In this document: piece by piece, positions 14,631 through 56,238 of the stretch
Layout: each line of letters starts with the position of its first letter
Position numbering within the stretch: the first letter of the stretch is position 1
Made by a program: the position numbers and the translations under genes
Assembly: GCA_017454295.1 (NCBI GenBank)
Contig: JAFTDF010000004.1
Coordinates: 52,904 to 116,903 of the forward strand
Length of the DNA: 64,000 bases
DNA from: Bacilli bacterium
GTDB taxonomy: Bacteria; Bacillota_I; Bacilli_A; RFN20; CAG-826
Direction of reading: 5' to 3'
The notes under the pieces: model-generated
The model's input: the letters and a program-made list of their open reading frames with translations, nothing else
What the model was told of the DNA's origin: nothing
Database searches by the model: none

Positions 14631-14633
14631 CGT

Positions 14634-25614: not shown

Positions 25615-26222
25615 GATACTTTCTCCTCTATGATGGTGATGGTTTGTTCGTCTTGAAGTAAGTCGAGGGATAAGCCCGCTTTTTCAAAGACCGGATGTAG
25701 TTTAGCACTAGAAATGGCCGTTGTTTCCACTTTTATTCCGAAAGCGGTCTCTTTTAAAGAGAAACCGTATTTCTCCGAGAGGCGGAGAATGGTTTGATAA
25801 GCGGAATAGTCCACCTCCAAATGATAAGAATAGACCTGTTTCTCGACCCCAAGCCTAGCCGACGAAATGGCAAGTTCCGCCGCTTCTAAAATGGAGCGAC
25901 GAAGCCGGGGAATGCCTAGTTTGGTGCCGCCGAAATAACGGGCCACAATCAGATAGCCATAGAGGTCTTTTTCTTCCAAAAGGCTTAACAAAGGGCGGCC
26001 GGCACTCGAACCGGGCTCACCATCGTCGCTGCTTTTGCCCCGGTCTTTAAGCCGATAGGCATAGGGATAATGATCGGCTTTGGGGAAGCGTTTCTTAAAA
26101 GAATCATAGATTTCCTTAAAGGAAGTTTCGTCCGAAAGCGGCCCCACTTCTCCATCGAAGGTGGAGCCCAAACATTTATATTCCCCAGTGGCCGGGGCGA
26201 AAGGTAAACGCGCCATGATCAA
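25611..26222 (-). CDS. yigZ: IMPACT/YigZ family protein
   Basis: UPF0029-type motif SSDDGEPGSSAGRPLL and FGGTKLG, with a C-terminal DUF1949-like domain. It has ATGA overlaps on both sides. Confidence 0.8.
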   Translation of the reverse strand: MIMARLPFAPATGEYKCLGSTFDGEVGPLSDETSFKEIYDSFKKRFPKADHYPYAYRLKDRGKSSDDGEPGSSAGRPLLSLLEEKDLYGYLIVARYFGGTKLGIPRLRRSILEAAELAISSARLGVEKQVYSYHLEVDYSAYQTILRLSEKYGFSLKETAFGIKVETTAISSAKLHPVFEKAGLSLDLLQDEQTITIIEEKVS

Positions 26223-39064: not shown

Positions 39065-39192
39065 GACACCTCGGAGATAACGGCCACGGGATCGGCCTTG
39101 ACGATGGCGCGCAAGGCACCGTGGGAGAACAAGATGGCAAACCCAACAAAGGCGACCAAAGCACCAAGGCATACATAGAAGGGCAGATACAT
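39061..39192 (-). CDS. 43-codon ORF encoding an FtsX TM4 plus C-terminal tail, in frame with the upstream permease across a TAA
   Basis: My translation is MYLPFYVCLGALVAFVGFAILFSHGALRAIVKADPVAVISEVS. It lies 8 codons after the TAA at 39214-39216 in the same frame. Its TGA overlaps the next ATG (ATGA). It is below the ORF-track size cutoff. Confidence 0.55.
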   Translation of the reverse strand: MYLPFYVCLGALVAFVGFAILFSHGALRAIVKADPVAVISEVS

Positions 39193-39213
39193 CGTCGCGA
39201 CGAATTTCAAGGA

Positions 39214-40419
39214 TTAGACGAATGCTCCGTAAGTAGAGGCCACCACAAGATTAATCAAGGAAGTCAAAGGAGTGAACATCGTCCAAAGTAGTAGATAACC
39301 CAGCAAAACCCCAACGCTTACCAAAAAAGCGGATTCGATGAAGACGACACTTTTGAGCGACCTTCCCCGCATTCCCAATGCTTTGGCCAATCCAAAGAAC
39401 TTCTTACTCCGGTCGATGGAGATGATCGCCGAATTGGCCAAGGAACCAACCGACATCAATAGCAAAATCAAAGCGAATAAAGCCGCGGCGGAAATGACGA
39501 CGCTTCGCATGGTTTTGTCACTGGCATATTGTTCGTAAACGGGGCAGGAAACGGTATCGGTATAATGGAGGATGCGGTCCGTTTCGAAATACTCGACGGT
39601 AATCCGCTTGGGCAAAACGGCATTGCATTTATCCGCCAAGGCGTTCAGGCGATTGATCGTACCTTCGGGGTCGCTTACTTTCCCCTGAGGCCGATGGTAG
39701 GCAGAGAACGATTCGACGATGGCGCGGCTAGGGAATGTGGTAAACGCGATTCCGATATCCCCGATGACTTGGCCAAAGGAAAGCGGGGAAACGTTCCCGT
39801 TGAGGACGATTTTCTCTCCGGTATATTCGAAAATCCCAACGACGACGAATTCCGGATAGCCATACTGGTCCGACCGCCAACCCCACAAATCGCGGACATA
39901 AGCCGAACGCGTATGCACGCTTCCGATGGTATAGGGATCGGGTTCTTCCCCTTCAAAGGATTTCTCATAAGCCTCTTTGCTGACGATGACCTCGTTGTGA
40001 GCTTCCGAAACAGCGATATTGCGTCCTTCGACGATTCGCAAGCCCGGACCGACGGGATAAGAGGGGTCGGTGTAGGTGATTTCCGATGCGATGTTGGTGG
40101 TGTAATAAATGGATTGGACCATATCCGGAGCAGATCCCACCGCATCCAAGAAGGCCGGGTATTCGGTTTCTTGGAAGTATCTTTGCTCCATGACATTGGT
40201 CTGCATGGCGTTGTTATAGTTGACGCTGACGAGGGCTTTTTCCGGGAAAAAGGCTTTTCCGATGATCTCCCCGCCGTTTTTCGCAAAGGAAACAGCCAGG
40301 CACAACATGCCCATGATGAGCGCGGACAAAAAGGTGGAGATGACCACGGTCAGGATCGAACGGGATCGATTCTCCTTAATGGTATGGAATGCGATTCTGC
40401 AACAATCCCTTGTCCTCAT
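39214..40419 (-). CDS. FtsX/MacB-type ABC permease, ends before the expected fourth TM helix (401 aa)
   Basis: TM1, an extracytoplasmic domain and the TM2-TM3 FtsX motifs are present. The ORF stops at TAA right after TM3. Confidence 0.75.
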   Translation of the reverse strand: MRTRDCCRIAFHTIKENRSRSILTVVISTFLSALIMGMLCLAVSFAKNGGEIIGKAFFPEKALVSVNYNNAMQTNVMEQRYFQETEYPAFLDAVGSAPDMVQSIYYTTNIASEITYTDPSYPVGPGLRIVEGRNIAVSEAHNEVIVSKEAYEKSFEGEEPDPYTIGSVHTRSAYVRDLWGWRSDQYGYPEFVVVGIFEYTGEKIVLNGNVSPLSFGQVIGDIGIAFTTFPSRAIVESFSAYHRPQGKVSDPEGTINRLNALADKCNAVLPKRITVEYFETDRILHYTDTVSCPVYEQYASDKTMRSVVISAAALFALILLLMSVGSLANSAIISIDRSKKFFGLAKALGMRGRSLKSVVFIESAFLVSVGVLLGYLLLWTMFTPLTSLINLVVASTYGAFV

Positions 40420-41117
40420 ATGCCCATCTTCTCAACGTCGTATTTCTCCATATAATCGGCCGACACCACCCCATCTTTGATGTGGATGATATTTTCCGCG
40501 TTTTTGGCGTCTTCCATGTTATGGGTGACGAGCACCACGGACTTGCCCATCTTGACGATTTCCTTTAGCAGTGCCATGACCTCGGCCCCGTTTTGGCTAT
40601 CGAGGTTCCCCGTCGGTTCGTCGGCGAGGATGATTTCGGGATCGTGAACCAACGCCCGGGCAATCGAAACACGTTGTTTCTGACCGCCGCTTAATTCGTT
40701 GGCCCGTTTGTTGATTTTCTCTTCCAGTCCTAGACGTTTGAGGATTTCCTTGGCCTTTGCTTCCCGTTCGGCCCGCTTCATGCCGGCAATGGTAAGGGGC
40801 ATGGCCACGTTTTCCAAAACCGTATAGGAAGGCTCGAGGTAGAAGGATTGGAACACGAACCCCGTGGTCTTGTTCCGATAATCCGCAAGCTGGTTCTCCG
40901 AAAGGGCATTCAGTTCCATGCCATGGCTGAACACCTGCCCCGAAGTTGGGGTGTCGATGGCGCCGATGATGTTCATCAAGGTCGATTTCCCGGAACCTGA
41001 TTTGCCTAAGACGCAGGTAAACTTCCCGTCTTCGATGACGAGGTTGACATCTTTGAGGGCCTCCACGGCGCCTTCGCCTTTGCCATAGATTCGGTTGACG
41101 TGTTTGAGAATGATCAT
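40416..41117 (-). CDS. ABC transporter ATP-binding protein (MacB/LolD-like)
   Basis: Contains Walker A GKSGSGKST, signature LSGGQKQRV and Walker B ILADEPT. An AAGGAGG SD lies upstream. Confidence 0.93.
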   Translation of the reverse strand: MIILKHVNRIYGKGEGAVEALKDVNLVIEDGKFTCVLGKSGSGKSTLMNIIGAIDTPTSGQVFSHGMELNALSENQLADYRNKTTGFVFQSFYLEPSYTVLENVAMPLTIAGMKRAEREAKAKEILKRLGLEEKINKRANELSGGQKQRVSIARALVHDPEIILADEPTGNLDSQNGAEVMALLKEIVKMGKSVVLVTHNMEDAKNAENIIHIKDGVVSADYMEKYDVEKMGI

Positions 41118-41231: not shown

Positions 41232-42623
41232 ATGGAAGAACGACAATCCAAACTTGGCTACCGCCGCTGGCTTAGCATTATTTTCATCGGCTTGATTGGG
41301 CAAATCGCCTGGGCCATCGAAAACAACTACATCAACCTTTGGGTCTTCTCCCAAAGCCACGATGCCAACCATATCACCTGGATGACCACCGCTTCGGCCG
41401 TCGTCGCCACCTTGACCACCTTCTTCATGGGTGCCCTTTCGGATAAGCTTGGGAAACGCAAAATCTTCATCGCGGCAGGTTATGCCATTTGGGGCGTCAC
41501 GGTCTTCTCCTTCGGGCTGATGTCGCTCACCAACATGACGAATCTCGCCCAAGGCAACGCCACCACCGCCATCGTGCTCGTCGGGGTGATGAACGTTGTA
41601 GTCGACTGCGTCATGACCTTCTTTGGATCGACTTCCAACGACGCTTGCTTCAATGCCTTCGTCACGGATGAAACCAATTCGAAAAACCGGCCCTTTGTCG
41701 AAGCCGTCCTTTCCATCATGCCTTTGCTGGCCATGGGGATTATGCTCGCCGTCGGTATGATCCTAGGCATCCCTGGGGTGCAAGGGGATATGCCCAATGC
41801 GGAATGGGCCGCCAAGATCGCCCAACCGTGGTTCATCTTCTTCTTGGTCTTTGGCATTTTGACCACCCTCATCGGGATTGTTTCCTTCTTCTTGATTCCC
41901 AAGGACCATATCATCCCCAATCGGGAGGACGGTTATTTCAAACACATGGTGAAGGGTTTCACCCCCAAAGCCGTGAAAACCAATCCCACCCTCTACATCG
42001 CCTTATTGGCCTTCATGCTCTTCAACATCGCCATCGACGCCTTTATGCCTTACCTCTTGGTCTATTTGCAAAACCTCCCCGCAGTCGCCTCGGTCGACGG
42101 CGGTTTCTATATCATCGTGGGCACCGTCATGGGCATTGCTTCCATCGGTGTTGTGCTCATTGGTTTATTCATGGAGAAAATCGGCAAATTCAAAGTCATA
42201 TTCCCCGCGGCCGCATGCTTAATCGCCGGGTCTTTAGGACTCTTCTTTGTCCGCGATTCCCTTGCAATTTGCACGGTTTTCGCCACGATTATGATGTTTG
42301 GTTATTTGGCGGGCACGGCCGCTTTAGGCGCCGAAATCCGTGATGATACCCCCATCAACGACGCCGGGGCTTATCAATCCGTCCGTATGGTCTTCGTCGT
42401 CATGCTCCCGATGGTCATCGGCTCGAATTTGGCCTCGCTTACTTTCCAAGCCACCAGCCTCGACGAATTTGGAAGACAAACCAAAGTGCCCGACGCCAAC
42501 ATGTTCTTAGTCACCGCCATCGCCGCGGGTATTGCCATCGCCCCGATCATTTGGCTGCTGCTTCAAAAGAAAAAGGCCGCGAGGGCCTTTGTCCAAATAG
42601 AAGATCCTAACCAAGGAAAGTAA
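41232..42623 (+). CDS. MFS transporter (GPH/sugar-type)
   Basis: 463 aa with about 12 TM helices and an MFS-type loop GALSDKLGKRK after TM2. Confidence 0.8.
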   Translation: MEERQSKLGYRRWLSIIFIGLIGQIAWAIENNYINLWVFSQSHDANHITWMTTASAVVATLTTFFMGALSDKLGKRKIFIAAGYAIWGVTVFSFGLMSLTNMTNLAQGNATTAIVLVGVMNVVVDCVMTFFGSTSNDACFNAFVTDETNSKNRPFVEAVLSIMPLLAMGIMLAVGMILGIPGVQGDMPNAEWAAKIAQPWFIFFLVFGILTTLIGIVSFFLIPKDHIIPNREDGYFKHMVKGFTPKAVKTNPTLYIALLAFMLFNIAIDAFMPYLLVYLQNLPAVASVDGGFYIIVGTVMGIASIGVVLIGLFMEKIGKFKVIFPAAACLIAGSLGLFFVRDSLAICTVFATIMMFGYLAGTAALGAEIRDDTPINDAGAYQSVRMVFVVMLPMVIGSNLASLTFQATSLDEFGRQTKVPDANMFLVTAIAAGIAIAPIIWLLLQKKKAARAFVQIEDPNQGK

Positions 42624-44550
42624 GCGGGATTTCCGGCCCAGCTAGCTCTTTCTTGTTCCAATCGGGGTGGAAGTCCCCGTTCGCTTTGGCCTCTTCATAG
42701 GCCGCTTCGGAGAGATCAATCTCAATCGAGGTCAAATATTCGCATCCATAGAAGCAAAGCGAATCGGCCGATTCCAACGCCGGCAAAACGATCTTTTTGA
42801 TATTCAAATCCTCGCGGAACGTCTGTTCGCCCAAATAGCGAATGGAAGAAGTGCCAAGGTCTAGCGTCGCCACGCCATCATAGCAAAGCTTGTTCATTTG
42901 CCCAAAGCCAGAAGGAAGAATCTGGGTAACCGTGGAAGGCAAAACGAAGCGATTCACCTTTGACGCGGAGGAAGCCTCGGCTTCGGTGGAATGGAAGGAG
43001 TGGAAGGAAGAGACGGCGGTGAAGTCGTATTCGGTGAGCAAACGCGTTTTCGCGCTGGGGGCAACGGTCACGTCGGGGAAGGAGAAGGCATCCGGCTTGG
43101 CCTCGTTCCAGAAATCGTCCGCCTCGAGTTCGACCAGGGCATCGGAATCCTTCAACACGACCACAGGAGAGACCCCATGTTCTTGCAAGGCAAAATTCTC
43201 CAACATATAACCGCCCACATCGGCATCGAAGGCGTAATAGAAGGTTTTCTCGTAGTCTTTCGTTTTGTAATTGAACAAATCATCCGGATCGGCATAAACG
43301 ATTTTCCGCGGCGCGAAATAGGGATAGAGGTCCAGCGTGGCTTGGTCGAAGAGGTTGGCCTCGTCATAGAAAGCCACGAAATCTCCTAACTCATCGCCAA
43401 TATAGAAGCGACCCGTGAATGCGAAATCCGCGGGAACCGTGATTTTCCCGGTGGGATAATCAAAGACGTTCATCGCCGGGTCTTGGGATTGATGATAGGT
43501 CCGGGTTTCGGTTTTGCTTGGATCGGCGGGATCGAGGTGGAAGGTCACCGTCGCCTCGGGCACATAATCGGTATAGATGACATTGATCGCGGCATCGTAA
43601 AGGATATGCTGCGAATCGACCTTTCGCCCCGCTACGGCAGAGGGGGCACTGCTTGCATAGTTACCTTCGATATAAGCAAACGAATAATCCAAAGCGGTCA
43701 AATCAGGAAGGGCGCCAAGGCTGGCACCATAGGGAATGACGCGAGGATCAAAAGCGCCATCGGGGATTCCCGGGGCTCCAACGAGGGAATCGCGGGTCAG
43801 CACCCCCGCCACTTCGTGTTCATAAATCGGATTCAACGTCACCGTATAGGAATGTGGGTTCTCATCGAAATGGGCGGTGATGGTGGTCTCCCCATGAATC
43901 GTGATGTTGTTGATGCCGGTGAAGCCACTGACAAAGGACACGCTTTTCGTTCCATCGTCGTTTTTCACCGTGACGTCATAACCGGTAAAGGAGAAATCTT
44001 TGTAATAGGGGTCATAACCATAGGACCGGGGGTCATGGTTGGTGGTATCGGCGGTCATCTTCAAAGCTTCGTGATCACCGATTTTGGTACCAAAGGTGGC
44101 ATAGTCGGCCGCCACGGTCTCATAAGCGCATTGGATGGTAACGAGGTAATCCTTCGGCTTGGCTTCGAAAGTCGTGAATAACGCGCAATCGGACTGGATC
44201 GACTGCACATCGATCGCGTTGCCATTGGCGTAGAAACCTTTCCAATCAACGAACTTGTATTCATAGCCATTGGGGGCTTTGCGGTCGGACACGGAATAAC
44301 GGTGGTTATCCAAGACCGAATAACCTTCCAAACGGGCGGCTTCCCCCGCTTTCGCCCAACAATAACCTAAGTGACGGGCCTTGGACGCGTTCGGGGTTTT
44401 CGCGGAGATATCGGCATCGATCCCTTCGTAATCCCCGTAAAGATCGACGCGGAAATAGTCTTCCCTGGCGCCATTAGAAAACAGAGCGCATCCGGTCAGG
44501 GAAGGCATTCCGATTCCTAGCAACAGCAAAAAGGGAAGTTTTCTCTTCAT
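42607..44550 (-). CDS. surface lipoprotein with Listeria-Bacteroides-type beta repeats and a C-terminal BspA-like leucine-rich repeat
   Basis: Lipobox MKRKLPFLLLLGIGMPSL-TGC. Repeated Y.VT...GW-type modules are present. The C-terminal LRR region reads LPSTVTQILPSGF...IRYLGEQTF...IVLPALESADSLCFYGCEYLTSIEI. Confidence 0.7.
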   Translation of the reverse strand: MKRKLPFLLLLGIGMPSLTGCALFSNGAREDYFRVDLYGDYEGIDADISAKTPNASKARHLGYCWAKAGEAARLEGYSVLDNHRYSVSDRKAPNGYEYKFVDWKGFYANGNAIDVQSIQSDCALFTTFEAKPKDYLVTIQCAYETVAADYATFGTKIGDHEALKMTADTTNHDPRSYGYDPYYKDFSFTGYDVTVKNDDGTKSVSFVSGFTGINNITIHGETTITAHFDENPHSYTVTLNPIYEHEVAGVLTRDSLVGAPGIPDGAFDPRVIPYGASLGALPDLTALDYSFAYIEGNYASSAPSAVAGRKVDSQHILYDAAINVIYTDYVPEATVTFHLDPADPSKTETRTYHQSQDPAMNVFDYPTGKITVPADFAFTGRFYIGDELGDFVAFYDEANLFDQATLDLYPYFAPRKIVYADPDDLFNYKTKDYEKTFYYAFDADVGGYMLENFALQEHGVSPVVVLKDSDALVELEADDFWNEAKPDAFSFPDVTVAPSAKTRLLTEYDFTAVSSFHSFHSTEAEASSASKVNRFVLPSTVTQILPSGFGQMNKLCYDGVATLDLGTSSIRYLGEQTFREDLNIKKIVLPALESADSLCFYGCEYLTSIEIDLSEAAYEEAKANGDFHPDWNKKELAGPEIPLTFLG

Positions 44551-47127: not shown

Positions 47128-47160
47128 ACGTTTCTCCGAATTGGAGAATCGTTTTTCTTT
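47128..47160 (+). terminator. intrinsic terminator after the methyltransferase gene
   Basis: 10-bp stem ACGTTTCTCC/GGAGAATCGT (one mismatch), loop GAATT, then TTTTTCTTT. Confidence 0.75.
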
Positions 47161-47181
47161 TAATTGGTTAATCGCGAGTAG

Positions 47182-47210
47182 AGTGCCTGTGGCTTGCGCC
47201 TACGTAAAAT
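47182..47210 (+). promoter_or_regulatory. promoter-like AGTGCC-N17-TAAAAT upstream of the 311-aa/1,230-aa operon
   Basis: The spacer is exactly 17 nt. TTAATCGCGA lies just upstream. The same layout recurs at 52655-52694. Confidence 0.45.
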
Positions 47211-47227: not shown

Positions 47228-48163
47228 ATGAACGCCGCATCGACCCCCACCAATTCCGCCAAGAAAAAAAGCCCCCTCGTGTTCTGGGGCGTTTTCCTTG
47301 CCGCTACGATCGGCCTTGGGGTCGGCGCGGGATTCGGTATGACGAAATTGCTCAAACCCGATTCCATCCAATATATCGTCGATGAAGACCAATACACCAT
47401 CGACATGGAGGCCACGCGGAAAAAATACCAAGCGGCCAAATCCAGTAAGAACTTTGCTTCATTAACCCCAGAGGAAATGATCAATATCGGTTACGACCTC
47501 TTCGCCCAAGACGAAAACAATTACACCGTCGGCGTGGGTTATACCCAAGCGGCCATGGTCCGGCAAATCATCCAAACCCGTTCCGTCAAAATGGGAGACC
47601 GTTTCTTCGAGGAATCCAATTCCATCGGGATGGTCAATCTCTACGACCGCATGTTCCAAGAAGGGGATAACACCGTCAAATATTGGGGCTCGACGCCGGA
47701 TTATGGAAGCAACCAACCCGAAACCGTCTCCAACGCGGATTATCGCATCGCAATGGGTCGTAACGTCTCCGACAGTTTGGTCTACATCGTTTCCGAGAAA
47801 ACCAAAATTGAAACGCCCTCGCCGGGAGACCCGCCCAATGGCATCTACCAAGAAAACGGAGATTACCGGGTGGAAATCACCCTCGACCCCACCACTTCGG
47901 TGGCCCGTTATCAATGCCAAATGCAAACGATCTCGAATTTGAAATATAAACCCACCTTCGACTTCGTTCACCTCAGCGTGGTGCTTGATGCGGACCTCAA
48001 CCTCATCAAGATGACGACCCACGAAAAATACTTCGCCACCATCTCCTCGGGACTTGGTTCCACCGGCGAAGGTTCCCTCACCACCATGTATTACCACGAA
48101 GCCCCCTCCTACGGCTTCCCCAGCGTCAACAGCAAATTACCGGATTTCCCGGATTCATTATGA
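47228..48163 (+). CDS. membrane-anchored (N-terminal TM) extracytoplasmic protein, unknown function
   Basis: 311 aa with basic N-terminus KKKSP followed by the TM helix LVFWGVFLAATIGLGVGAGFG. It sits immediately upstream of the 1,230-aa gene. Confidence 0.7.
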   Translation: MNAASTPTNSAKKKSPLVFWGVFLAATIGLGVGAGFGMTKLLKPDSIQYIVDEDQYTIDMEATRKKYQAAKSSKNFASLTPEEMINIGYDLFAQDENNYTVGVGYTQAAMVRQIIQTRSVKMGDRFFEESNSIGMVNLYDRMFQEGDNTVKYWGSTPDYGSNQPETVSNADYRIAMGRNVSDSLVYIVSEKTKIETPSPGDPPNGIYQENGDYRVEITLDPTTSVARYQCQMQTISNLKYKPTFDFVHLSVVLDADLNLIKMTTHEKYFATISSGLGSTGEGSLTTMYYHEAPSYGFPSVNSKLPDFPDSL

Positions 48164-48177
48164 AAGGAGCAACCACG

Positions 48178-51100
48178 ATGGCTCATTCAAAACTCAAACA
48201 CGGACTTCTCATCGGCTTAGCCGGGCTTGGCGTCTTCGGCGCCTCAGCCGTCACGACCTTCTTCGTCGTTCCCCAAAAAGTCATTACCCGCAACGTCGAG
48301 AACAATCACAACAACGGCGAAAACCATGTTCTCACCGGGCAGGAACGTTTTATCGGTAACCTCGCCAACCAAGCCTCCACGGGCCTTAGCTTTGAAATCA
48401 ACCATTTGAAATTCGACCAAAGCTATGTCGGCGAAAACGCCAAAACCGGTCACAACACCATCACCGTGACCGAAGACGCCCCGGCCACACTTCGCTTTGC
48501 GATGTCCAATCTCTCCCTCCATGGAGTCAACTTTGCCCTTACCGCGCCCCTCACCTATAGCAACAACGGAGTTAACGCCAAGCACCGGGGAATCCATGCC
48601 GCGCTAGTCAACGACGAAATCTATTTGAACCTTTTCGATAACGGCAACGATGTCGCGGATGTGGTAAATAACCAACTCGAGCGTTCCGCCGGGGGCACCT
48701 GGGATTTCAAATACAAAGTCTCCACCGCTGCCAAGGACATCCAAGTCGCCGAGGAAGATCAAGACGCGTTGACCCGTGGCTTCTATCAATATGAATATGG
48801 GGATCTCGACTGGCTCCTCGAAGATGTTCTCTCCATCCTTTCCGAAGGAGGGATCAACGTTTCCTTGGAGGGTTGGCTGAATAAGCTTACCTCCGGAAGC
48901 GAAACGTCCTCGGAGAGCGAAAGCGCCTCGAATGGTATTTCCTTGGATGACATCACCGCATCGATGAACCGAATGGTCGAGAAGAAAGTGGACGGGAAGC
49001 CCTACTTCATCTGGAATTTGCCCTTAGGCGATATGAACTTGCCGTTAGGGTTTGGTAGCGACGCTAGCTATAACCTCGCCCGCGTCGATCTCCCGGCCAA
49101 GGTCAGCGCCGACGATAGCGCCCCGTTAGAAGCGTGGACGATCCAAGACGGTTTGAGCCTCTCCTTAAGCGCCAAAGTCTCCACCGAGGCCATCGAGGAT
49201 TGGAGCGATGCCGTCTATGGCGATCCCGCCGACTACCACGATTTGCGCAATAGTGCAGGCTTATTCGAAGAAGTCGCCAAAGTCGTCTCCAAACCGCAAA
49301 TCGGGTTATCCGGCTCCTTCACCATCGGTCATGAGGAGGATGCCATCGAAGGCACCCGCACCAAGTTACGGAAAAAAGCGGTCGATGAAGACGCCAAAAT
49401 CGAACTTTCCGCCAATCTCGATGCCTTTGCCGCGGCCGAGCCGATTGCCGATTCCAAGCGTGAACTGCAGGGCATCGACGCCAGTTTGGTCATTGGCAAA
49501 GTCGACCAGCCCAACGAAGAACCCACCGCCAAAAACAAAATCGGCGTTGCCTATTTAAAAGAAGATGAGGAATTCAATGGCTATCTCAACGTCAACGAGG
49601 TCTTGAAAGCCAAAACCAGCAAGACCTACCTCGACGAATTCTATTCCGAAGTCCTCGAAGATACCTTCTCCTCCAGCGAGGATGGCATCTCCCTCGATCA
49701 ACTTAGCGGAATCGTCGATCTATTAGGCGATGACGTCAAAAAGATCCAAGAATCCGACTTGGTGAAAGCCATCCAAGAAGGTTCCTTCCCCACCGCTTTA
49801 GACTTGCTTTCTTCCTTTGTCGGTGGCGATAACACCATTGCCATCAACCTCTCCTTTGCCCCTTTAGGGATCGAAGGGACCGCCTCTGTGGTGTTAGATG
49901 GCGCCGCCAATCACGATTTGCTCTCGCTTACGATCTCCAATCTTAAGTTGCTCTCTTTCACTTTGAATGGGGAACTTCACACCTCCGCCTTCGTTGCGCC
50001 GAGCAAGCCGGCCTTTGCCGAGAATCCCGCCGAATATCAGGAACTCTCCCACCTCAAGGGAATCGGAGGCCAAATCAAAGACATCGTGAATGAGAAATCC
50101 TTCGGGATGGATCTTGGCCTAACGATGGCTAATGCCACCGAAACCACCTTGGATGCCCAGGGGAAAGTTCAACTTTCCTTTGGCGAGCAGAAAGAAGGCA
50201 ACGTTGGCCTAAAACTCATCCATAAAGCCAAGAGCTATACCGCCCAACATAACGCCGTCATCGATTTGAAGAACGATTTCCAAGACATCGCCTTCCATTA
50301 CGATTCCTATAAGGACGATGACCGCGTCGACACCTCGGCTAAATCCGCGGATGGCATCAACGGCAAGATGTCCCTTGCCTCCGCCAAAGAAGTCTTCTCG
50401 CAAGAACAAGATTTCGATCTTCAAGAAATCCTCACCATCTTCAAAGGCGACGATCGTTTCTCCCGCCTTGGCGCGGCCTTGATGGGTGAATCTTCCGCTT
50501 CGTTAATTTCCCAAATCATGAACCGTCAATATTTCGGTTTGCTGGAAAACCATGCCATCTTGAGCCAAGTCGATATCGCTAGCGACCACACCCTCGTCGT
50601 CTTAGATGGCGCTAAGCTTGGCTTAGATGCCACCACCATCACCATCGACGTCGTCTACGAAACCCCCGCCGAAGGGGAAGGCGGCATCGCTTCCTTGAAT
50701 GTGCAAATCGCCCGGGCTGGCAGCCAAGACCAAGAAGCCCGCACCATCGCTCTCTCCCTCTCGAACATTGCTCCGTTAGGGGAAACTTCGATTGCCCATC
50801 TCGACGATACCAATTTCGATGACTATAGCCCCTTAGCCACGCTCGGTCGCGATTTGGTTCACACCTTGACGCTAGGCGACTATGTCAATGAGGGCAAAGT
50901 CCAAGGTGCTTCCAATTATGCCATCCATGGCGCGATTGATCTGGATATCGCCGGCTACGGAACCACCCTTTATGATTTCGATGCCAAAGCCTATGTCGAA
51001 GGCGCTGAAACCAAACTCTATGCCGAACTCGCCGACTTCCCGGTCATCCGCGGCGTCAACGGTCCCGATTCCGATACCTATTTCCGGCCCAATGAACTCG

Positions 51101-51870
51101 AGGGTGTGCGCACCAGCGAGATCTACTTCTATGCCAATGGCGTCGATCCCGAAGGCCAAGTCCTCTTGACCCGCGATTCTTCCTATGGCCGCCTCCGCAA
51201 CGTCCAAGATGCCGTCCGTCTCCAAGGCAAGGATCTCACCGATGACCTGCTAGGCTGGCTTGGCGAATATGCCCTTGGCTTGGATGCTTCCTTATTTGAA
51301 AAAGAAGAAAGCGAATCCACCACCGAATCTTCGGGCATGGCCATCCATCTCGATGATGCCTGGGTTGGTTTCACCCATGACGATCACACCTACGAAATCG
51401 CTTTGAATTTGGGTGATTTGCTGGGGATTTCGATCTTGGACGAAGTGAAATTGACCTTCGAGACCAAATCCGTCACCTCGACAAATTACAGCAAGGAAAT
51501 CGTTTCGGGATTGGTCGTCTCCCTCGCCGTTGCCCCCAAAGCCACCGATGCGGAAAACCAAGTCCATAAGATGAAACTCGCCTCCGCCGAAGTGAGCCTC
51601 CGCCTCACCAATTTCGCAGGCGCCGATCATGCCGTCACCTCCGTCTTTGGCGAAGATTCTCGCTTTGCCCAAGCCTTCGTCGGCACCGTCTCCGAAGATG
51701 GTCTTATCGACGAAGATGGCGAAACCGGTGCCCTCTACCTCATCCAAAACGGGTTCCAATCCGCCATCGCCAATCCCAATCCCCACGCCGGATTTGATAA
51801 CTACTATGGTTATGACTTCAGCCAAGGTGTCGGAGACTTCGCCGGACGGAACCTCTACTTGGGGATCTAA
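48178..51870 (+). CDS. large (about 1,230 aa) signal-anchored envelope protein, paralogue of 52717-56238
   Basis: An AAGGAG SD lies 8 nt upstream of the ATG at 48178. An alternative ATG at 48160 overlaps the upstream stop. The N-terminal TM helix is LLIGLAGLGVFGASAVTTFFVV. Conserved islands are shared with the paralogue (FIWNLPLG..LPLG, YLN.N..LKAKT, L.TR....GKD....LL.WL). Confidence 0.8.
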   Translation: MAHSKLKHGLLIGLAGLGVFGASAVTTFFVVPQKVITRNVENNHNNGENHVLTGQERFIGNLANQASTGLSFEINHLKFDQSYVGENAKTGHNTITVTEDAPATLRFAMSNLSLHGVNFALTAPLTYSNNGVNAKHRGIHAALVNDEIYLNLFDNGNDVADVVNNQLERSAGGTWDFKYKVSTAAKDIQVAEEDQDALTRGFYQYEYGDLDWLLEDVLSILSEGGINVSLEGWLNKLTSGSETSSESESASNGISLDDITASMNRMVEKKVDGKPYFIWNLPLGDMNLPLGFGSDASYNLARVDLPAKVSADDSAPLEAWTIQDGLSLSLSAKVSTEAIEDWSDAVYGDPADYHDLRNSAGLFEEVAKVVSKPQIGLSGSFTIGHEEDAIEGTRTKLRKKAVDEDAKIELSANLDAFAAAEPIADSKRELQGIDASLVIGKVDQPNEEPTAKNKIGVAYLKEDEEFNGYLNVNEVLKAKTSKTYLDEFYSEVLEDTFSSSEDGISLDQLSGIVDLLGDDVKKIQESDLVKAIQEGSFPTALDLLSSFVGGDNTIAINLSFAPLGIEGTASVVLDGAANHDLLSLTISNLKLLSFTLNGELHTSAFVAPSKPAFAENPAEYQELSHLKGIGGQIKDIVNEKSFGMDLGLTMANATETTLDAQGKVQLSFGEQKEGNVGLKLIHKAKSYTAQHNAVIDLKNDFQDIAFHYDSYKDDDRVDTSAKSADGINGKMSLASAKEVFSQEQDFDLQEILTIFKGDDRFSRLGAALMGESSASLISQIMNRQYFGLLENHAILSQVDIASDHTLVVLDGAKLGLDATTITIDVVYETPAEGEGGIASLNVQIARAGSQDQEARTIALSLSNIAPLGETSIAHLDDTNFDDYSPLATLGRDLVHTLTLGDYVNEGKVQGASNYAIHGAIDLDIAGYGTTLYDFDAKAYVEGAETKLYAELADFPVIRGVNGPDSDTYFRPNELEGVRTSEIYFYANGVDPEGQVLLTRDSSYGRLRNVQDAVRLQGKDLTDDLLGWLGEYALGLDASLFEKEESESTTESSGMAIHLDDAWVGFTHDDHTYEIALNLGDLLGISILDEVKLTFETKSVTSTNYSKEIVSGLVVSLAVAPKATDAENQVHKMKLASAEVSLRLTNFAGADHAVTSVFGEDSRFAQAFVGTVSEDGLIDEDGETGALYLIQNGFQSAIANPNPHAGFDNYYGYDFSQGVGDFAGRNLYLGI

Positions 51871-51886
51871 ACGCCATCTCCCTTCA

Positions 51887-51909
51887 AGCGCCCATTGTGG
51901 CGCTTTTTC
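51887..51909 (+). terminator. intrinsic terminator after the 1,230-aa gene
   Basis: Stem AGCGCC/GGCGCT, loop CATTGT, then TTTTT. Confidence 0.7.
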
Positions 51910-51932
51910 TTTATTTCCTTTGGAAATCGCCC

Positions 51933-51938
51933 TACAAT
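51933..51938 (+). promoter_or_regulatory. -10 box (TACAAT) 6 nt upstream of the XRE-gene ATG; leaderless candidate
   Basis: The sequence reads CCTACAAT-CAAAGC-ATG(51945). Confidence 0.5.
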
Positions 51939-51944
51939 CAAAGC

Positions 51945-52598
51945 ATGGAACAACTCTCCAATATCGTCGGGAAAAACCTCGCTTCGTTACGAAAAGCAAG
52001 GGGTCTGACCCAACAAGAACTGGCCAAAGAAATCAACTACTCGGATAAATCCATTTCCAAATGGGAACTCGGCTACGCTTTGCCTTCCGTCGACGTGTTA
52101 AAGGACTTCGCCGAATTCTATGGGGTCACCGTGGACTACCTCATCCGCGAACAAAAAGAACAGGAACTCATCGCCACCGCCCAAAAGGAAACCCCCTGGA
52201 TCAATCTCAACCATGGTTTGATTTTGGCCATGTCGATGACCTTCATCGTTTTGGTTGCCCTCTCCGTTTTCTTCTCCGAATATTATTCCCCCTTCAGCAG
52301 CTCCGCCCCCGATCCAGAATCCCGCCGCTGGGCTTGGTCCATCTTCATCTGGATGGTCCCCGTGTGCTTATTGGTGGCCGCTTTCGAAACCCGGCGTTTC
52401 TGGCGTCCCAATAAGATTGCTTTCGTGGTGCTGCTTAGTTGCTTCGTTTGGTTCTTGTTTATCGCCTTTGCCATTCACTTCGCCTTCTTTGCCAGGCCTT
52501 CCGAAAACGTATGGTATATCCTTGTGGCTTGCATCCCCATACAAGTCATTATCATCTTGGCGGCGAATTTCCGCAGGAAGCCAAAGGAAAAACAATAA
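51945..52598 (+). CDS. XRE-family HTH regulator fused to four TM helices
   Basis: HTH region LRKARGLTQQELAKEINYSDKSISKWELG, followed by four hydrophobic helices. Length is 217 aa. Confidence 0.8.
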   Translation: MEQLSNIVGKNLASLRKARGLTQQELAKEINYSDKSISKWELGYALPSVDVLKDFAEFYGVTVDYLIREQKEQELIATAQKETPWINLNHGLILAMSMTFIVLVALSVFFSEYYSPFSSSAPDPESRRWAWSIFIWMVPVCLLVAAFETRRFWRPNKIAFVVLLSCFVWFLFIAFAIHFAFFARPSENVWYILVACIPIQVIIILAANFRRKPKEKQ

Positions 52599-52601
52599 AA
52601 G

Positions 52602-52623
52602 ACGTGCCCCGTGCACGTTTTTT
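52602..52623 (+). terminator. intrinsic terminator after the XRE gene
   Basis: Stem ACGTGC/GCACGT with a 5-nt loop, then TTTTTT. Confidence 0.7.
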
Positions 52624-52665
52624 CTTGTTCTCCAAAACGGAGAATCCCCATTCCTTGATTGCGAT

Positions 52666-52694
52666 AGTGCCCCTTGTTTTTCCTTGCATATAAT
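52666..52694 (+). promoter_or_regulatory. promoter-like AGTGCC-N17-TATAAT upstream of the 1,173-aa lipoprotein gene
   Basis: The spacer is exactly 17 nt and TTGATTGCGA lies just upstream. An AAAGGA SD precedes the ATG at 52717. Confidence 0.5.
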
Positions 52695-52716
52695 GCAAGC
52701 GGGGAAAAGGATACGT

Positions 52717-55700
52717 ATGCACCATCGACTTCGTCAAATCACCGTCTCCTTGCTAAGCCTTGTTGGCTTAGTTTTTTCCGGTTGTGCTACCGTGGCTTCT
52801 CCGCTTCCCGAAATCAAAGCCGAGCAAACCTATGTCCGTAACGACACCCCGATTCGGGCCCAGGTTTCAAACTTGATTGAAGATGGTCTGGCTTTGGATC
52901 TCGATTCGTTCCAGATCAACATCCCCAGCAAACAAGGCGCGGATAACCTCATCGACCTTTCCCATAGCCAAGCCCATTTCCGGCTCGATGCCCCTTCGCT
53001 CCACGGCATCGTCCTTTCCTTAGCGGCTTCCGGCACCTATAACGGCGCCGCCGATCCTCTCCATTTCAACCTCGATTTGCCCGGCGACGATACCATCTAT
53101 CTCGCCCTCGGACTGCCGCAGCGTCAAGGCAAACAACGGGGTTTCCGTTTCAAAAGCGACCTCGCGATCGTCGATGCCCCCGAAGGGATGGATGAGGGAA
53201 CCCGCGGAATCACTTATTTCGAATATGGGGCTTTGGACCATTTCCTTTATTCCTCGCTTGAGGCATTGGGAATTTCTTTCTCTCTTTCCACTTCGGAAGG
53301 CGGCATCGCCTTTGATGGCGCCGCGATCAAAGATTCCTTAGCGCAAATGGAAGCCGTCGGCAGCGACCGTTTCATTTGGAACTTGCCTTTAGGTGAAGCC
53401 ACTTTGCCCCTTGGGCTCGTGGCATCCTCGGGAACCTTGCGCAGAATCGAATTCCCCGCCGATGGGGGTACTTATACGTTTGAAAACGGTATCGAATGTT
53501 CGTTCTCCGCCACCATTCGTCCCGATGAGAATCACGTTTTCTCGGCGCCAAACGAAGCCGAATCTTACGTCGAGATTAGCGATTCGTTAGAACTAGTCAA
53601 AGGTATCGGACGATATGTAAAGAGTAAGTCCTTTGGTTTTGATGGCGAATTCACCATCGCCCATGCGGAAGGCAGCATCACCGGCGACGACACCCATTTT
53701 GCCCGTGAGGGATTTTCCGAGGAAGCGACCTTATCCTTTACCGGGGATGCCGATTTCTCCGTATCGCCTTATCAAGACGCGGCCTTCTCTCTTTCCCTTT
53801 CCCAAGGATCGGATAGCGAAAACCTCGCCCTTCATCTGCGCGAAGAAGAGGGCGAAACCAGAGCCTATTTAAACCTTAACGACATTCTCAAAGCAAAAAC
53901 GAACGTCTCCACTGTTTCCAGCTTTGCCACGAGCCTCAAAAACGCTTTGGGGGACGAAACGATTCGCAACGAAACCATCATGGCGTTGCTCTCGGGTTTG
54001 CTCTCCACCGCCGATAGCATCCAGCAAGCTCTCGATGCCATTCAAGGAACTGGCTTATATTCTTCCATCAAAGATGGCCATTACGAAGAGTCACTAGAAA
54101 TCATTAAGGAAATCTCCCATGACCAAAATTCCATTCGCGTGCAAATCGACCTCGCCCCGATTGCGATGAGCGGAAACGTCACCATCACGCTTTCTTCGGC
54201 CGCAGATTCCTTACTTTCGATCGCCTTGGACCAAGTCGGCATCGCCACCAGCGAAGAGCCGACGCTAAATCTTGCCATCACCGGCACGCTCGCCATTCGC
54301 GATTTCCTCGCGCCCGCCCTAGAAACGGACCAATATGTTGAGATGGAACACCTTCCGGCTTGGGAAGAAGAATTATCCGCCATCGCCGAGACCGATCAGC
54401 TCACCGCCGATATCGAAGGCTATGTATTGCAACTTGGCACCACCGCGGTCGCCAATCAGACCGTGCATGGGTTCTCCGGCAACCGCCTTGCTCGCGAACA
54501 AGGGTTCCTCTTCTCCGGGAATCTCGGTTTTGATTTGGCCGAGAAAAAAGGAACGGGCAAAGCCACGTTTACCGACCGAAAGGAAAACTTCCTCAACGAC
54601 CACAACCTCAAACTCGATGTCACCGGGCCGGAAATCGAAGATACCGTCCTTAGCGATGAGGCCAAACGGAACAACGACTATACCGGTAACGATACTCCGA
54701 ATGGCGGCATGATGCTGTTCGAATACGATTCCAAAAACTCCGCCACGACCAAATCCGCCTATTCCAAAGCAACGGAACCAAAACACGATTCCTTAAAGGG
54801 ACGGTTCTCGGTGCACTCCTTGGATACGATTTTGGGAATCGTGACGGATTTGATGTCTTCCGACGATGTCCGTTTCGACCGTTTGACAAGCCTCTTCTCC
54901 GACTTAACCACCAAGTCCACGATCGGCGCTTTACTTGGCGGCAAATATCTTCAAGTCCTTGCCAGTGGCATCCTCTCCTCGGTCAGCATCGATAACCTTC
55001 AAAACATCGACACCTTTGTTTTGAAACCGGGTTTAATCAAAGAAGGTTATCCCTTAACTCTTCGCATCACCTATGAAGACGATGCGATCCTCGAATCCGG
55101 CGTCCATCAAGGAAAACCGAAGATCTTAGAAGTTCTTTCCCGCCCGGAAAACAGTGCAGAAGGAACGGAAATCTATGCAAAAATCACCTTAACCGGTACG
55201 AATTTGGAATCCGCGGATTTCAATTGGGGCGCTTCGCCTAATCTCAATGATTTCCGTTCCTATTCGTCTTTGGCCCATCTCCTCGACTACCTTTTAGGCA
55301 CGATTACCTTGGGTTCCACCGATACCAACCCATTGACGACGTATCACTTATCCGGCCGTATCCCGTTAAAGATTTTGACCAAGACCTATAACATCGAACT
55401 CGAGATTTTCATTTACCTCCACGGCACCAATGTGAAGATCATCGGCTCCGTTCATACCCCTGAAATCAAACCGATTGGTTTGGTCTCGGTCACCAATGCC
55501 GACACCTATGTAAACCTGTTCTACGAGAGTAACGGCGAAGATAAAGAAGGAGATCTCTTCCTCACCCGTCGCCACGTCGAAGACCACGATCTTTCCAACG
55601 ATAAGAAGACGGAAGAGTTCCGCCGTGTCCGTGGGAAGGATTTCTCCGCGAATTTGTTAGATTGGCTTTTAGGCTTCATCTTGAACGTGGGCAGCGTAGT

Positions 55701-56238
55701 CACCAACAACCTAGATTCGGGAGCGGCCAAACAAACCATGCACGGAGAAGACCTCATCCGCGGCTGGTCCACCGGCGGCACCTATGCCAACCCCACCTGG
55801 ACCATCACCATCGGGATGGAAGGGCTCACCCACATCTCCTTATTCGAAGACCTGACTTTGACCATCGCCGGCAAGACCGTCACCTATAGCGAAGGCGGAA
55901 AAGCCTACACCAAGAAATCGTTATACTCCGCAAACGGCGGTTTGGCTCTCAAGATCGTCGGTATCTCCGCCGCCTCGGCCACTTTGGATTTCAGGGTCGC
56001 TAACATCACCGCTTCTGGCAACTACGAAAACGCTTGGAGCAATAGCAACCACAAAGTCGGCCTTTATGGCATCTCCACATCCAGCCACAAGGTCTTTTTG
56101 AGCACCTATACCGACTATAGCATCTCCACCACGATGGTTACCCCCGCTTCCGCTTTTAGCGGAGCCAACGGAAAATCCACCGCCAATGCGAATTATCGCA
56201 ATGCCTCTTATTACGTTACGCCAACCCAAAAAGCCTAA
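52717..56238 (+). CDS. large (1,173 aa) lipoprotein, paralogue of 48178-51870
   Basis: Signal peptide plus lipobox MHHRLRQITVSLLSLVGLVF-SGC. The ORF-track start at 52255 overlaps the XRE gene and precedes the terminator and promoter. It shares sequence islands with the 1,230-aa protein. Confidence 0.8.
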   Translation: MHHRLRQITVSLLSLVGLVFSGCATVASPLPEIKAEQTYVRNDTPIRAQVSNLIEDGLALDLDSFQINIPSKQGADNLIDLSHSQAHFRLDAPSLHGIVLSLAASGTYNGAADPLHFNLDLPGDDTIYLALGLPQRQGKQRGFRFKSDLAIVDAPEGMDEGTRGITYFEYGALDHFLYSSLEALGISFSLSTSEGGIAFDGAAIKDSLAQMEAVGSDRFIWNLPLGEATLPLGLVASSGTLRRIEFPADGGTYTFENGIECSFSATIRPDENHVFSAPNEAESYVEISDSLELVKGIGRYVKSKSFGFDGEFTIAHAEGSITGDDTHFAREGFSEEATLSFTGDADFSVSPYQDAAFSLSLSQGSDSENLALHLREEEGETRAYLNLNDILKAKTNVSTVSSFATSLKNALGDETIRNETIMALLSGLLSTADSIQQALDAIQGTGLYSSIKDGHYEESLEIIKEISHDQNSIRVQIDLAPIAMSGNVTITLSSAADSLLSIALDQVGIATSEEPTLNLAITGTLAIRDFLAPALETDQYVEMEHLPAWEEELSAIAETDQLTADIEGYVLQLGTTAVANQTVHGFSGNRLAREQGFLFSGNLGFDLAEKKGTGKATFTDRKENFLNDHNLKLDVTGPEIEDTVLSDEAKRNNDYTGNDTPNGGMMLFEYDSKNSATTKSAYSKATEPKHDSLKGRFSVHSLDTILGIVTDLMSSDDVRFDRLTSLFSDLTTKSTIGALLGGKYLQVLASGILSSVSIDNLQNIDTFVLKPGLIKEGYPLTLRITYEDDAILESGVHQGKPKILEVLSRPENSAEGTEIYAKITLTGTNLESADFNWGASPNLNDFRSYSSLAHLLDYLLGTITLGSTDTNPLTTYHLSGRIPLKILTKTYNIELEIFIYLHGTNVKIIGSVHTPEIKPIGLVSVTNADTYVNLFYESNGEDKEGDLFLTRRHVEDHDLSNDKKTEEFRRVRGKDFSANLLDWLLGFILNVGSVVTNNLDSGAAKQTMHGEDLIRGWSTGGTYANPTWTITIGMEGLTHISLFEDLTLTIAGKTVTYSEGGKAYTKKSLYSANGGLALKIVGISAASATLDFRVANITASGNYENAWSNSNHKVGLYGISTSSHKVFLSTYTDYSISTTMVTPASAFSGANGKSTANANYRNASYYVTPTQKA

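Follow-up and report, generated by a model that had tools for sequence, protein, structure and literature searches.

Uncultured RFN20-type Bacilli and related MAG lineages share one conserved genetic module of four genes, A, B, R, and C. The module is an undescribed surface system outside every described family. It probably regulates itself, and it comprises a small anchored protein (A), two giant paralogs (B and C), and a membrane-embedded regulator (R). As to function, we tentatively favor, at somewhat less than even odds, a surface apparatus in which A, B, and C would handle hydrophobic ligands or lipids, with R as its dedicated regulator. The four open reading frames of the original prediction are all present in the window (the whole 64-kb stretch of DNA analyzed), as follows.

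47228-48163, plus strand: gene A, open reading frame for a 311-aa type-II membrane-anchored protein with a predicted LolA/LolB/LppX-like open beta-barrel ectodomain
48178-51870, plus strand: gene B, open reading frame with a Shine-Dalgarno-supported start; 1230 aa, N-terminal signal-anchor and repeated beta-rich modules
51886-51905, plus strand: terminator-like hairpin and T-run after B (consensus scan only)
51945-52598, plus strand: gene R, 217 aa; transcription regulator embedded in the membrane by four TM helices, XRE HTH at the N-terminus
52597-52623, plus strand: terminator-like hairpin and T-run after R (consensus scan only)
52717-56238, plus strand: gene C, open reading frame for a 1173-aa lipoprotein, paralog of B over its full length

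Judged by the 14-nt gap between A and B, and by the overlap of the B ribosome-binding site with the end of A, these two genes are co-transcribed. The most likely start of B is the ATG at 48178, which has the Shine-Dalgarno sequence GAAAGGAG 8 nt upstream and gives a product of 1230 aa, the same as database protein P0001. An alternative ATG at 48160 is less likely. R begins at the ATG at 51945 (217 aa), and all orthologs have the same start. Three separately terminated transcription units had been proposed; terminator-like hairpins do follow B and R, but no terminator was found 3' of C, where the stop codons of C and the convergent ruvX overlap.

MAGs of RFN20-type Bacilli from gut and rumen keep the four genes linked. 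Gene orders seen are A-B-R-C, A-B-C-R, R-A-B-C, R divergent from A-B-C, R divergent from A-B, and A-C'-B', and A lies immediately 5' of a B-type gene in all loci with enough flank. The loci occupy at least four distinct genomic neighborhoods that are unrelated to each other. The suggestion of a functional module is borne out by this linkage in relatives through several gene orders and neighborhoods. Candidatus Enteromonas, assigned to the RFN20 family CAG-826 (PMC8035907), is among the relatives. Peptidoglycan is predicted to be absent from family CAG-826 (PMC10868615), and the module hosts are gut bacteria that probably lack a wall. EzrA is encoded in some module-carrying lineages (L026 and L032), so these may be walled. 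At locus L030, a class-3 lipase lipoprotein gene lies 14 nt after a gene encoding a 4,042-aa B-type lipoprotein, and at L031, LPG_synthase_TM and GT4 glycosyltransferase genes follow R on the same strand. The lipase neighbor (L030) and the glycolipid-gene neighbors (L031) are single cases.

Profile and PDB-sequence searches gave no characterized family for A, B, or C, in line with the lack of recognizable motifs noted at first; none of the three matched Pfam, NCBIfam, PADLOC, PHROGs, or PDB sequences, and none matched the LolA, LolB, RseB, or LppX sequence profiles. Thirty-seven homologs of A were found (0/37 annotated) and 33 close homologs of B. Among 1.84 billion cluster representatives, 227 belong to the B/C family, all of them unannotated. 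The full-length paralogy claimed for B and C is statistically solid (BLASTP E 2e-50, 25% identity, ~1,080 aligned residues), and all the sequence islands first quoted for it recur in the alignment. The pair does differ in anchoring. B has one N-terminal hydrophobic helix, whereas in C the signal sequence ends in FSGC, with the lipobox Cys kept at that position in orthologs, giving C a lipid anchor where its paralog has a helix anchor. C orthologs in relatives are 30-44% identical. B-type and C-type orthologs from relatives group apart, so the duplication is older than this clade.

Gene A encodes a single N-terminal hydrophobic helix (TM residues 17-35) followed by a predicted ectodomain of ~11 long antiparallel strands with inserted helices (AF2 model, pLDDT 88.7, pTM 0.81). 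In Foldseek searches with this model, LolB, RseB, LolA, and LppX matched at probability ~1.0, a likeness at fold level only (TM-scores 0.3-0.48, rmsd 7-9 A). Ependymins were also among the best matches at this probability, and one matched LolA entry has stearate bound. Proteins of the LolA/LolB/RseB/LppX-LprG superfamily use an open beta-barrel to carry lipids and the acyl chains of lipoproteins, and two of them, LppX and LprG, are envelope-anchored in bacteria without a classical outer membrane. The A ectodomain resembles these carriers in fold, as do parts of B that match LolA and RseB. However, the module differs from them in the lack of a sequence-profile match, in TM-scores of only 0.3-0.48, and in the helix anchor of A. 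B and C would be chains of several such modules, reaching 1,200 aa, and a literature search found no such chains described for the superfamily. The module has no conserved LolCDE or MmpL partner, and its hosts are Bacilli without an outer membrane.

Several residues of A are invariant and polar (E129, R141, H248, E266, and several Tyr); they would be more at home in a specific site or an enzyme than in a greasy pocket and count against a lipid role. A also has an FEES motif. The LolA fold is also not always a lipid binder, as GerS of Clostridioides difficile is a LolA-fold lipoprotein that activates the amidase CwlD. With GerS/CwlD as precedent, A could be an enzyme or enzyme activator acting on an envelope polymer or glycolipid, with B and C as scaffolds or substrates, and the invariant residues, the FEES motif, and the L031 genes following R would fit such a role. 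We consider this decidedly unlikely: A matched no catalytic family, whether by sequence or by fold, Foldseek gave dehydratases, lyases, and thioesterases only low probability, and the module has no conserved partner enzyme.

The AF2 model of B (pLDDT 76, pTM 0.57) predicts ~8 blocks of 5-6 long strands plus helices, with strands of 10-15 residues arranged as barrels or cups. Its best-probability Foldseek matches were local and comprised LolA, RseB, BFA1, and the ApoB beta-barrel. Two regions of B stand out.

49297-50880, plus strand: internal tandem duplication of two ~260-aa modules (49297-50097 and 50098-50880), each with ~11 strands plus helices
51040-51279, plus strand: most conserved stretch of B orthologs, IRGVNGPDS..YFRPNE.EG.R ... 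LLTRDSSYGR.RNV.D.VRL.G

Comparison of B alignment segments by hhalign matched s3 with s5 (E 2.2e-5 over 116 columns) and s4 with s6 (E 4.7e-4). The duplicated profile segment is multi-copy in proteins P0148, P0179, and P0195, which are 1,800-4,000 aa long, and amplified in relatives of 1,400-4,000 aa. Invariant and near-invariant columns concentrate at residues 922-1001 (numbering of the trimmed B sequence), and C shares the most conserved stretch only in part. In architecture, B resembles AsmA/TamB/YhdP proteins, with an N-terminal membrane anchor followed by ~1,200 residues, repeats of 5-6 long beta strands and then a helix in the model, and a length that varies by module number. Unlike in that family, no AsmA, TamB, or DUF490 profile was matched in 34 B/C members, and none of its proteins was in the top 50 Foldseek matches of B; AsmA/TamB/YhdP proteins reach from the inner to the outer membrane in diderms, while the module hosts are Bacilli.

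B and C evolve faster than housekeeping genes (identity to locus L002 is 47% for B, 43% for C, and 80% for PepF). Copy number of the middle module varies among relatives, and the 4,042-aa relative has eight CBM_5_12 carbohydrate-binding modules. Adhesins and surface fibrils typically show such traits, which count against a lipid role. B and C could instead act at the surface as adhesins, fibrils, or a protein coat, on a cell with neither wall nor sortases, with A as a dock or assembly factor, R as an on/off switch for the coat, and the beta modules as spacers that bind no lipid. Both proteins are surface-anchored, and the pTM of the B model would suit a rigid, extended body. RFN20 lacks sortases (PMC10868615), so other anchoring would be needed. 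We find this account possible but doubtful, since no adhesin repeat, Ig-like, LRR, or lectin domain was found in the 34 B/C members searched, the long predicted strands in barrels or cups are unlike the short strands of Ig-like stalks, and the best fold matches are lipid carriers. B and C are also single-copy and collinear, with a fixed chromosomal place and a dedicated regulator; variable antigens, such as the neighboring LRR lipoprotein (34% identity), behave otherwise.

R has an HTH_3 domain (Pfam E 1.9e-16) and four hydrophobic segments, confirming the predicted XRE regulator with four TM helices; it is a DNA-binding protein held in the membrane. R orthologs are 41-66% identical and adjoin A, B, or C in every lineage examined. 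The winged-helix proteins ToxR and CadC each have a single helix and a sensor domain in the periplasm. Like them, R links DNA binding in the cytoplasm to membrane helices and adjoins its likely targets, but it has an XRE-type HTH, four helices, and hardly any extracellular domain, so any signal would have to reach it inside the membrane or by way of partner proteins. Transmembrane transcription regulators are widespread (PMC10269533). Two candidate operators were found in the window.

47132-47148, no strand assigned: inverted repeat TTCTCCGAATTGGAGAA, lying 80 nt ahead of the start codon of A; candidate operator of R for the A-B operon
52628-52644, no strand assigned: inverted repeat TTCTCCAAAACGGAGAA, lying 73 nt ahead of the start codon of C; candidate operator of R for C

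These are the only two exact matches in 64 kb to the 17-bp inverted repeat TTCTCC-N5-GGAGAA, and both are in promoter regions. Relatives, distant ones included, carry the same palindrome upstream of A, for instance between the divergent R and A genes of L026, L029, and L031, where a terminator would make no sense, and it is kept upstream of C-type genes in L001, L005, L011, L012, L013, L017, L018, and L027. Symmetric variants occur in relatives (e.g., GACTCTCC..GGAGAGTC). The repeat is likely the R operator, and its conservation upstream of both A and C strengthens the idea of a dedicated regulator.

A, B, and C might alternatively be an envelope sensor that captures a ligand or detects membrane or envelope damage and signals to R through TM-helix contacts, with the R regulon as main output. 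The precedent would be RseB, which has the LolA fold and gates the RseA/sigma-E pathway; for A and B alike, it ranks with the best fold matches. R sits in the membrane, is linked to the module in all cases, and has conserved motifs containing Pro in TM2 and TM4. We regard a sensor as unlikely, because ~2,700 extracellular residues would be a very large investment and the module has no protease or anti-sigma component. Operator copies in the window are restricted to the A-B and C promoters, so the visible regulon is the module itself, which argues for feedback control and not signal output.

Envelope scaffold, adhesin pair, and lipid or ligand handling had all been offered as functions; the fold matches of A and parts of B favor the last, at fold level only. 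Among predicted structures, the confident A model with its lipid-carrier matches and the local LolA/RseB matches of B support a lipid apparatus, and the L030 lipase and L031 LPG_synthase_TM/GT4 neighbors are context hints. Against it stand the LolA likeness without a profile match, the presence of the module in the possibly walled EzrA lineages, and the patatin gene beside the window locus, which has no signal peptide and is missing in L001 and L005. Mycoplasma pneumoniae P116, a large protein on the surface of a bacterium that has no wall and depends on lipids, is a lipid-extracting shuttle with ATP-independent lipid uptake and delivery, and it shows that wall-less bacteria use such surface shuttles (PMC10023570, PMC12487902). 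It is the closest match to the proposed working of the module. However, the module proteins have no sequence similarity to any PDB chain, P116 is absent from the top 50 structural matches of B, and P116 acts as a homodimer of a single protein that has a fold of its own, and not as part of a three-protein module with a dedicated regulator.

In the proposed apparatus, A would be a single LolA-like cup at the membrane, and B and C would be chains of ~260-aa LolA-like cups. The A, B, and C complex at the surface would bind hydrophobic ligands, most likely gut-lumen lipids, fatty acids, or sterols, and move them without ATP between the environment and the cell membrane, as P116 does, with A as the membrane-proximal acceptor. 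An R dimer bound to TTCTCC-N5-GGAGAA would control A-B and C on a signal perceived in the membrane and thereby match expression of the apparatus to membrane state.

A further conserved element lies between the candidate operator and the start codon of C, and its core GCATATAATGC recurs at this position ahead of C in 10 loci.

52684-52698, plus strand: conserved palindrome TTGCATATAATGCAA with a perfect TATAAT; probably the -10 element of the C promoter

The four adjoining genes A, B, R and C are a real system that has not been described before, and A-B-R-C is probably a module regulated by R. A encodes a small membrane-anchored protein, B a giant protein held by a helix, C a giant lipoprotein paralogous to B, and R an XRE-type regulator with four predicted membrane helices. 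No description of such a four-gene module was found in the literature, and the homologs of A, B and C all come from metagenome assemblies, none of them named beyond "hypothetical protein". The genes lie in the window as follows:

47228-48163, + strand: A, ORF of 311 aa
48178 (likely ATG start)-51870, + strand: B, ORF of 1230 aa
51945-52598, + strand: R, ORF of 217 aa, start position as in all orthologs
52717-56238, + strand: C, ORF of 1173 aa

The ATG at 48178 is the likely start of B: GAAAGGAG precedes it by 8 nt, and P0001 in the database likewise has 1230 aa. A and B each have a single N-terminal hydrophobic helix. The signal sequence of C, MHHRLRQITVSLLSLVGLVFSGC, ends in a lipobox Cys (the lipobox is relaxed, with F at -3), and a Cys after the hydrophobic region is also found in the C-type orthologs of five loci from relatives (L001, L002, L004, L005 and L027). 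By signal peptide and lipobox Cys, C would be classed as a bacterial lipoprotein. The N-terminus of R matches Pfam HTH_3 (E 1.9e-16), HTH_19 and HTH_31, all Cro/C1-type helix-turn-helix domains, and is followed by four hydrophobic 19-residue segments that are also present in the L001 and L026 orthologs. From this HTH and the predicted integral membrane segments, R fits the transmembrane transcription regulators, though it combines an XRE domain with four helices. The original prediction of different anchors on the two giants and of an XRE regulator with four transmembrane helices is therefore borne out. It had also proposed three separately terminated units; a consensus scan found terminator-like hairpins after B and after R and detected none between C and the convergent ruvX (- strand), whose stop codons overlap by 4 nt (56235-56238). 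At the R start codon, a -10-like TACAAT lies 8 nt upstream with no Shine-Dalgarno (window 51930-51947), and similar boxes occupy the same place in L001, L004 and L005; the R mRNA may be leaderless.

Gene order was compared by searching 31 fetched loci with the A, B/C and R profiles. A B-type gene lies directly downstream of A in every locus with enough flank, accompanied by C and R. Most loci have the order A-B-R-C; others have A-B-C-R (L004, L006, L007 and L015) or R-A-B-C (L021), R is divergent from adjoining A-B-C in L029 and L031 and from adjoining A-B in L026, and in L032 R lies 3.5 kb from A-C'-B'. Gene neighbors vary from lineage to lineage, so the linkage of the four genes reflects more than general synteny, and the expectation that the module would be conserved and syntenic in relatives held across several orders and neighborhoods. 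A neighboring patatin gene is unlikely to be part of it, having no signal peptide and being missing in L001 and L005. In L029, a 474-aa lipoprotein gene without a Pfam match (14357-15781) directly follows A-B-C in an AT-rich lineage, where it may encode an extra component.

Among species-representative genomes, those with B go under the names Candidatus Enteromonas and "uncultured Mollicutes", or are "Bacilli" and "Erysipelotrichaceae" MAGs by name, from rumen or gut. Candidatus Enteromonas has been placed in order RFN20, family CAG-826 (PMC8035907); CAG-826 is predicted to lack peptidoglycan, and RFN20 lacks sortases (PMC10868615). The more distant carriers (L026-L032) are AT-rich Bacilli. 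EzrA is encoded in some of these, and the module is therefore not confined to lineages without a wall.

The intergenic regions of the module share a 17-bp inverted repeat, TTCTCC-N5-GGAGAA, as a candidate operator. Its two copies and a second palindrome before C are:

47132-47148: candidate operator copy 1, 80 nt before A, perfect match
52628-52644: candidate operator copy 2, 73 nt before C, perfect match
52684-52698, + strand: palindrome TTGCATATAATGCAA, with a perfect TATAAT, upstream of C; core kept in 10 loci

These are the only two perfect matches in the 64-kb window, against about 0.004 expected by chance (simple arithmetic on 12 fixed bases in 64 kb). Relatives have the same repeat before A and before C, in some cases with symmetric changes in both arms (GACTCTCC..GGAGAGTC); where B and C abut, it is found upstream of A only, and in L026, L029 and L031 it occupies the gap between R and A, which are divergent there. 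A terminator scan flagged copy 1, as though it ended the upstream gene. This was rejected because the repeat also occurs in divergent R/A promoter regions and stands before C without a T-run. R is the sole DNA-binding protein that travels with the module and is therefore the likely binder of the candidate operator. The second conserved palindrome, TGCATATAATGCA, is situated between the repeat and C and is the probable site of the -10 box of the C promoter. With this placement the repeat would lie about 55-65 nt upstream of the predicted C transcription start, and we infer that its position fits activation better than repression. A short motif is also shared 20-30 nt downstream of each operator copy, GCGAGTAGAGTGCC before A (47179-47190) and GCGATAGTGCC before C (52665-52672); the A version is kept in L001, L002 and L005, and the motif may serve as a promoter element or as a second binding site.

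BLASTP aligns B with C over about 1,080 residues (25% identity, E 2e-50), and every short stretch of similarity that had been quoted as evidence of their paralogy falls inside this alignment. Among relatives, B-type and C-type proteins form separate groups: B of the window has 28-47% identity to B orthologs vs 24-26% to C-type proteins, and the lipoprotein of the distant lineage L027 is closer to C than to B. The duplication is therefore old, and both anchor types have been retained. A profile search (built from B, C and distant B orthologs, 11 sequences) found 227 family representatives among 1.84 billion cluster representatives, 203 of them at E <= 1e-10, and most have 950-1,350 aa. Twelve distant family members have no Pfam domains, except for one 4,042-aa B-type lipoprotein with eight CBM_5_12 modules. 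Its gene is followed after 14 nt by a class-3 lipase lipoprotein gene (L030 8001-21597), with no A-type gene near it in that locus.

B and C could act as adhesins or as a coat, which we regard as rather unlikely. They do evolve faster than most of their neighbors: compared with L002, the closest fetched relative, identity is 80% for PepF, 87% for RuvX, 66% for R and 60% for A, vs 47% for B, 43% for C and 34% for the neighboring LRR lipoprotein. The number of modules within B and C also varies, and the inserts in the 4,042-aa relative are carbohydrate-binding. On the other side, neither B (ending in ..NLYLGI) nor C (ending in ..TPTQKA) has a C-terminal LPXTG, and no Pfam adhesin repeat domain was found in them or in family members; from these sequences, B and C would not be classed as sortase-anchored adhesins.

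A, B and C had no match in Pfam, NCBIfam, PADLOC, PHROGs or PDB sequences, which agrees with the earlier statement that no enzyme, adhesin-repeat or sortase motif could be recognized. Every member of both family alignments was likewise without a Pfam match at E up to 1. Profiles of the LolA clan (LolA, LolB, MucB_RseB, LppX_LprAFG, DUF4367 and others in Pfam and NCBIfam) gave nothing at E <= 1 against A, B, C, 36 A-family members and 34 B/C-family members, nor did AsmA, AsmA_2, TamB (DUF490) and related profiles against the 34 B/C members. The only PDB sequence or profile matches were LysR regulators (E ~0.5), which were taken as chance.

Predicted structures point to a fold for A. Its model is of high confidence (pLDDT 88.7, pTM 0.81): a membrane helix and a short helical stalk lead into about 11 long antiparallel strands with two inserted helices. 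The best PDB matches by Foldseek were LolB, RseB, LolA (one entry stearate-bound), LppX, ependymin-type proteins and DUF1329, with probability ~1.0 yet TM-scores of only 0.3-0.48 and rmsd of 7-9 Å. On this model, A is predicted to have an unclosed antiparallel beta-barrel of about 11 strands with helices that close the cup, as in the LolA/LolB/RseB/LppX superfamily. The B model (ORF residues 40-1236; pLDDT 76, pTM 0.57) has about eight blocks of five or six strands, each strand of 10-15 residues, with helices after each block. Whole-chain matches of B were poor, and only LolA, RseB, BFA1 and the ApoB beta-barrel reached a probability of at least 0.8; the likeness to LolA/RseB-type structures consists of local matches only. 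LptD, porins and TonB receptors were B's top matches by E-value and were set aside as generic beta-rich proteins (probability <= 0.4, TM ~0.05). Viral models gave low-probability global matches only, and TamB, VPS13 and ATG2 structures were not among B's top 50. Segments 341-607 and 608-868 of modelled B are mutually homologous (E 2.2e-5 and 4.7e-4), and the same segment occurs in several copies in relatives of 1,400-4,000 aa. About 11 strands make up each repeated unit, as many as in a LolA-type cup. That A is itself one copy of the B module was rejected, since hhalign found no homology between the A and B profiles.

On the reading favored here, which falls somewhat short of probable, the module may be an apparatus at the cell surface that handles hydrophobic ligands, probably lipids. 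A would be a membrane-held cup, B a helix-anchored and C a lipid-anchored chain of cups, and R would set expression of the module from within the membrane. The fold matches of A and B to LolA/RseB-type structures favor lipid handling, as do the lipase gene after the giant B-type gene in L030, the glycolipid-type genes after R on R's strand in L031, and the precedent of P116 in Mycoplasma (PMC10023570, PMC12487902). Against it stand the low TM-scores, the example of GerS, a protein with the LolA fold that serves as an enzyme activator rather than a lipid carrier, the invariant polar residues that A carries, and the adhesin-like traits of B and C. A more specific scheme, a new kind of lipid-acquisition machine of wall-less gut bacteria in which the cup chains of B and C would extract lipids from food particles, host material or other microbes and pass them to A while R would read the lipid state of the bilayer and set expression, seems doubtful. 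In its working, a lipid-handling module would be most like P116 and the mycobacterial carriers LppX/LprG. In overall layout, it resembles the AsmA/TamB-type proteins, since modelled B has an N-terminal anchor helix and then a long body of about eight repeated strand blocks; however, the AsmA/TamB groove spans two membranes, and this host is not expected to have a second one. In the sequence tests the module matches none of these systems, and its hosts have no outer membrane to bridge; for P116, no PDB chain was matched by sequence or profile, and it was absent from the top 50 structural matches. The Lol pathway uses a LolCDE-type ABC transporter and an outer membrane, whereas the module's hosts are Bacilli and no ABC transporter was conserved with the module in the profile-searched loci.

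RFN20 and related reduced Bacilli are common in the guts of humans, ruminants and birds, and to our knowledge none has been cultured. The module, with about 2,900 codons, is among the largest conserved surface-protein investments of these bacteria. It is unannotated everywhere, yet it offers a testable circuit of candidate operator and membrane-embedded regulator. If B and C are lipid-carrier cup chains, they would represent a new architecture for lipid movement at a single-membrane surface, and R would be a simple model for intramembrane sensing; if R reads bilayer lipids, it would be the bacterial equivalent of membrane transcription factors that sense sterols or lipids. With B and C as adhesins, too, the module would be the main conserved surface structure of these organisms.

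Three other loci in the window encode membrane or surface proteins, all on the - strand. The 2,445-aa ORF at 26219-33556 has hydrophobic helices at its N-terminus and matches nothing in Pfam, and is thus another orphan giant membrane protein; it was ruled out as a third B/C paralog, being unrelated by BLASTP. At 37391-41117, between YhhN-family and MFS genes, are two FtsX/MacB-type permease genes and an adjacent ORF (40416-41117), which we assume to encode the ATPase; these genes are a lineage-specific insertion, since L001, L002, L004 and L005 lack them at this place. The LRR_5 (BspA-like) lipoprotein of 647 aa at 42607-44550 is the fastest-evolving gene of the neighborhood, with 34% identity to its L002 ortholog and 24-26% to those of L004 and L005.
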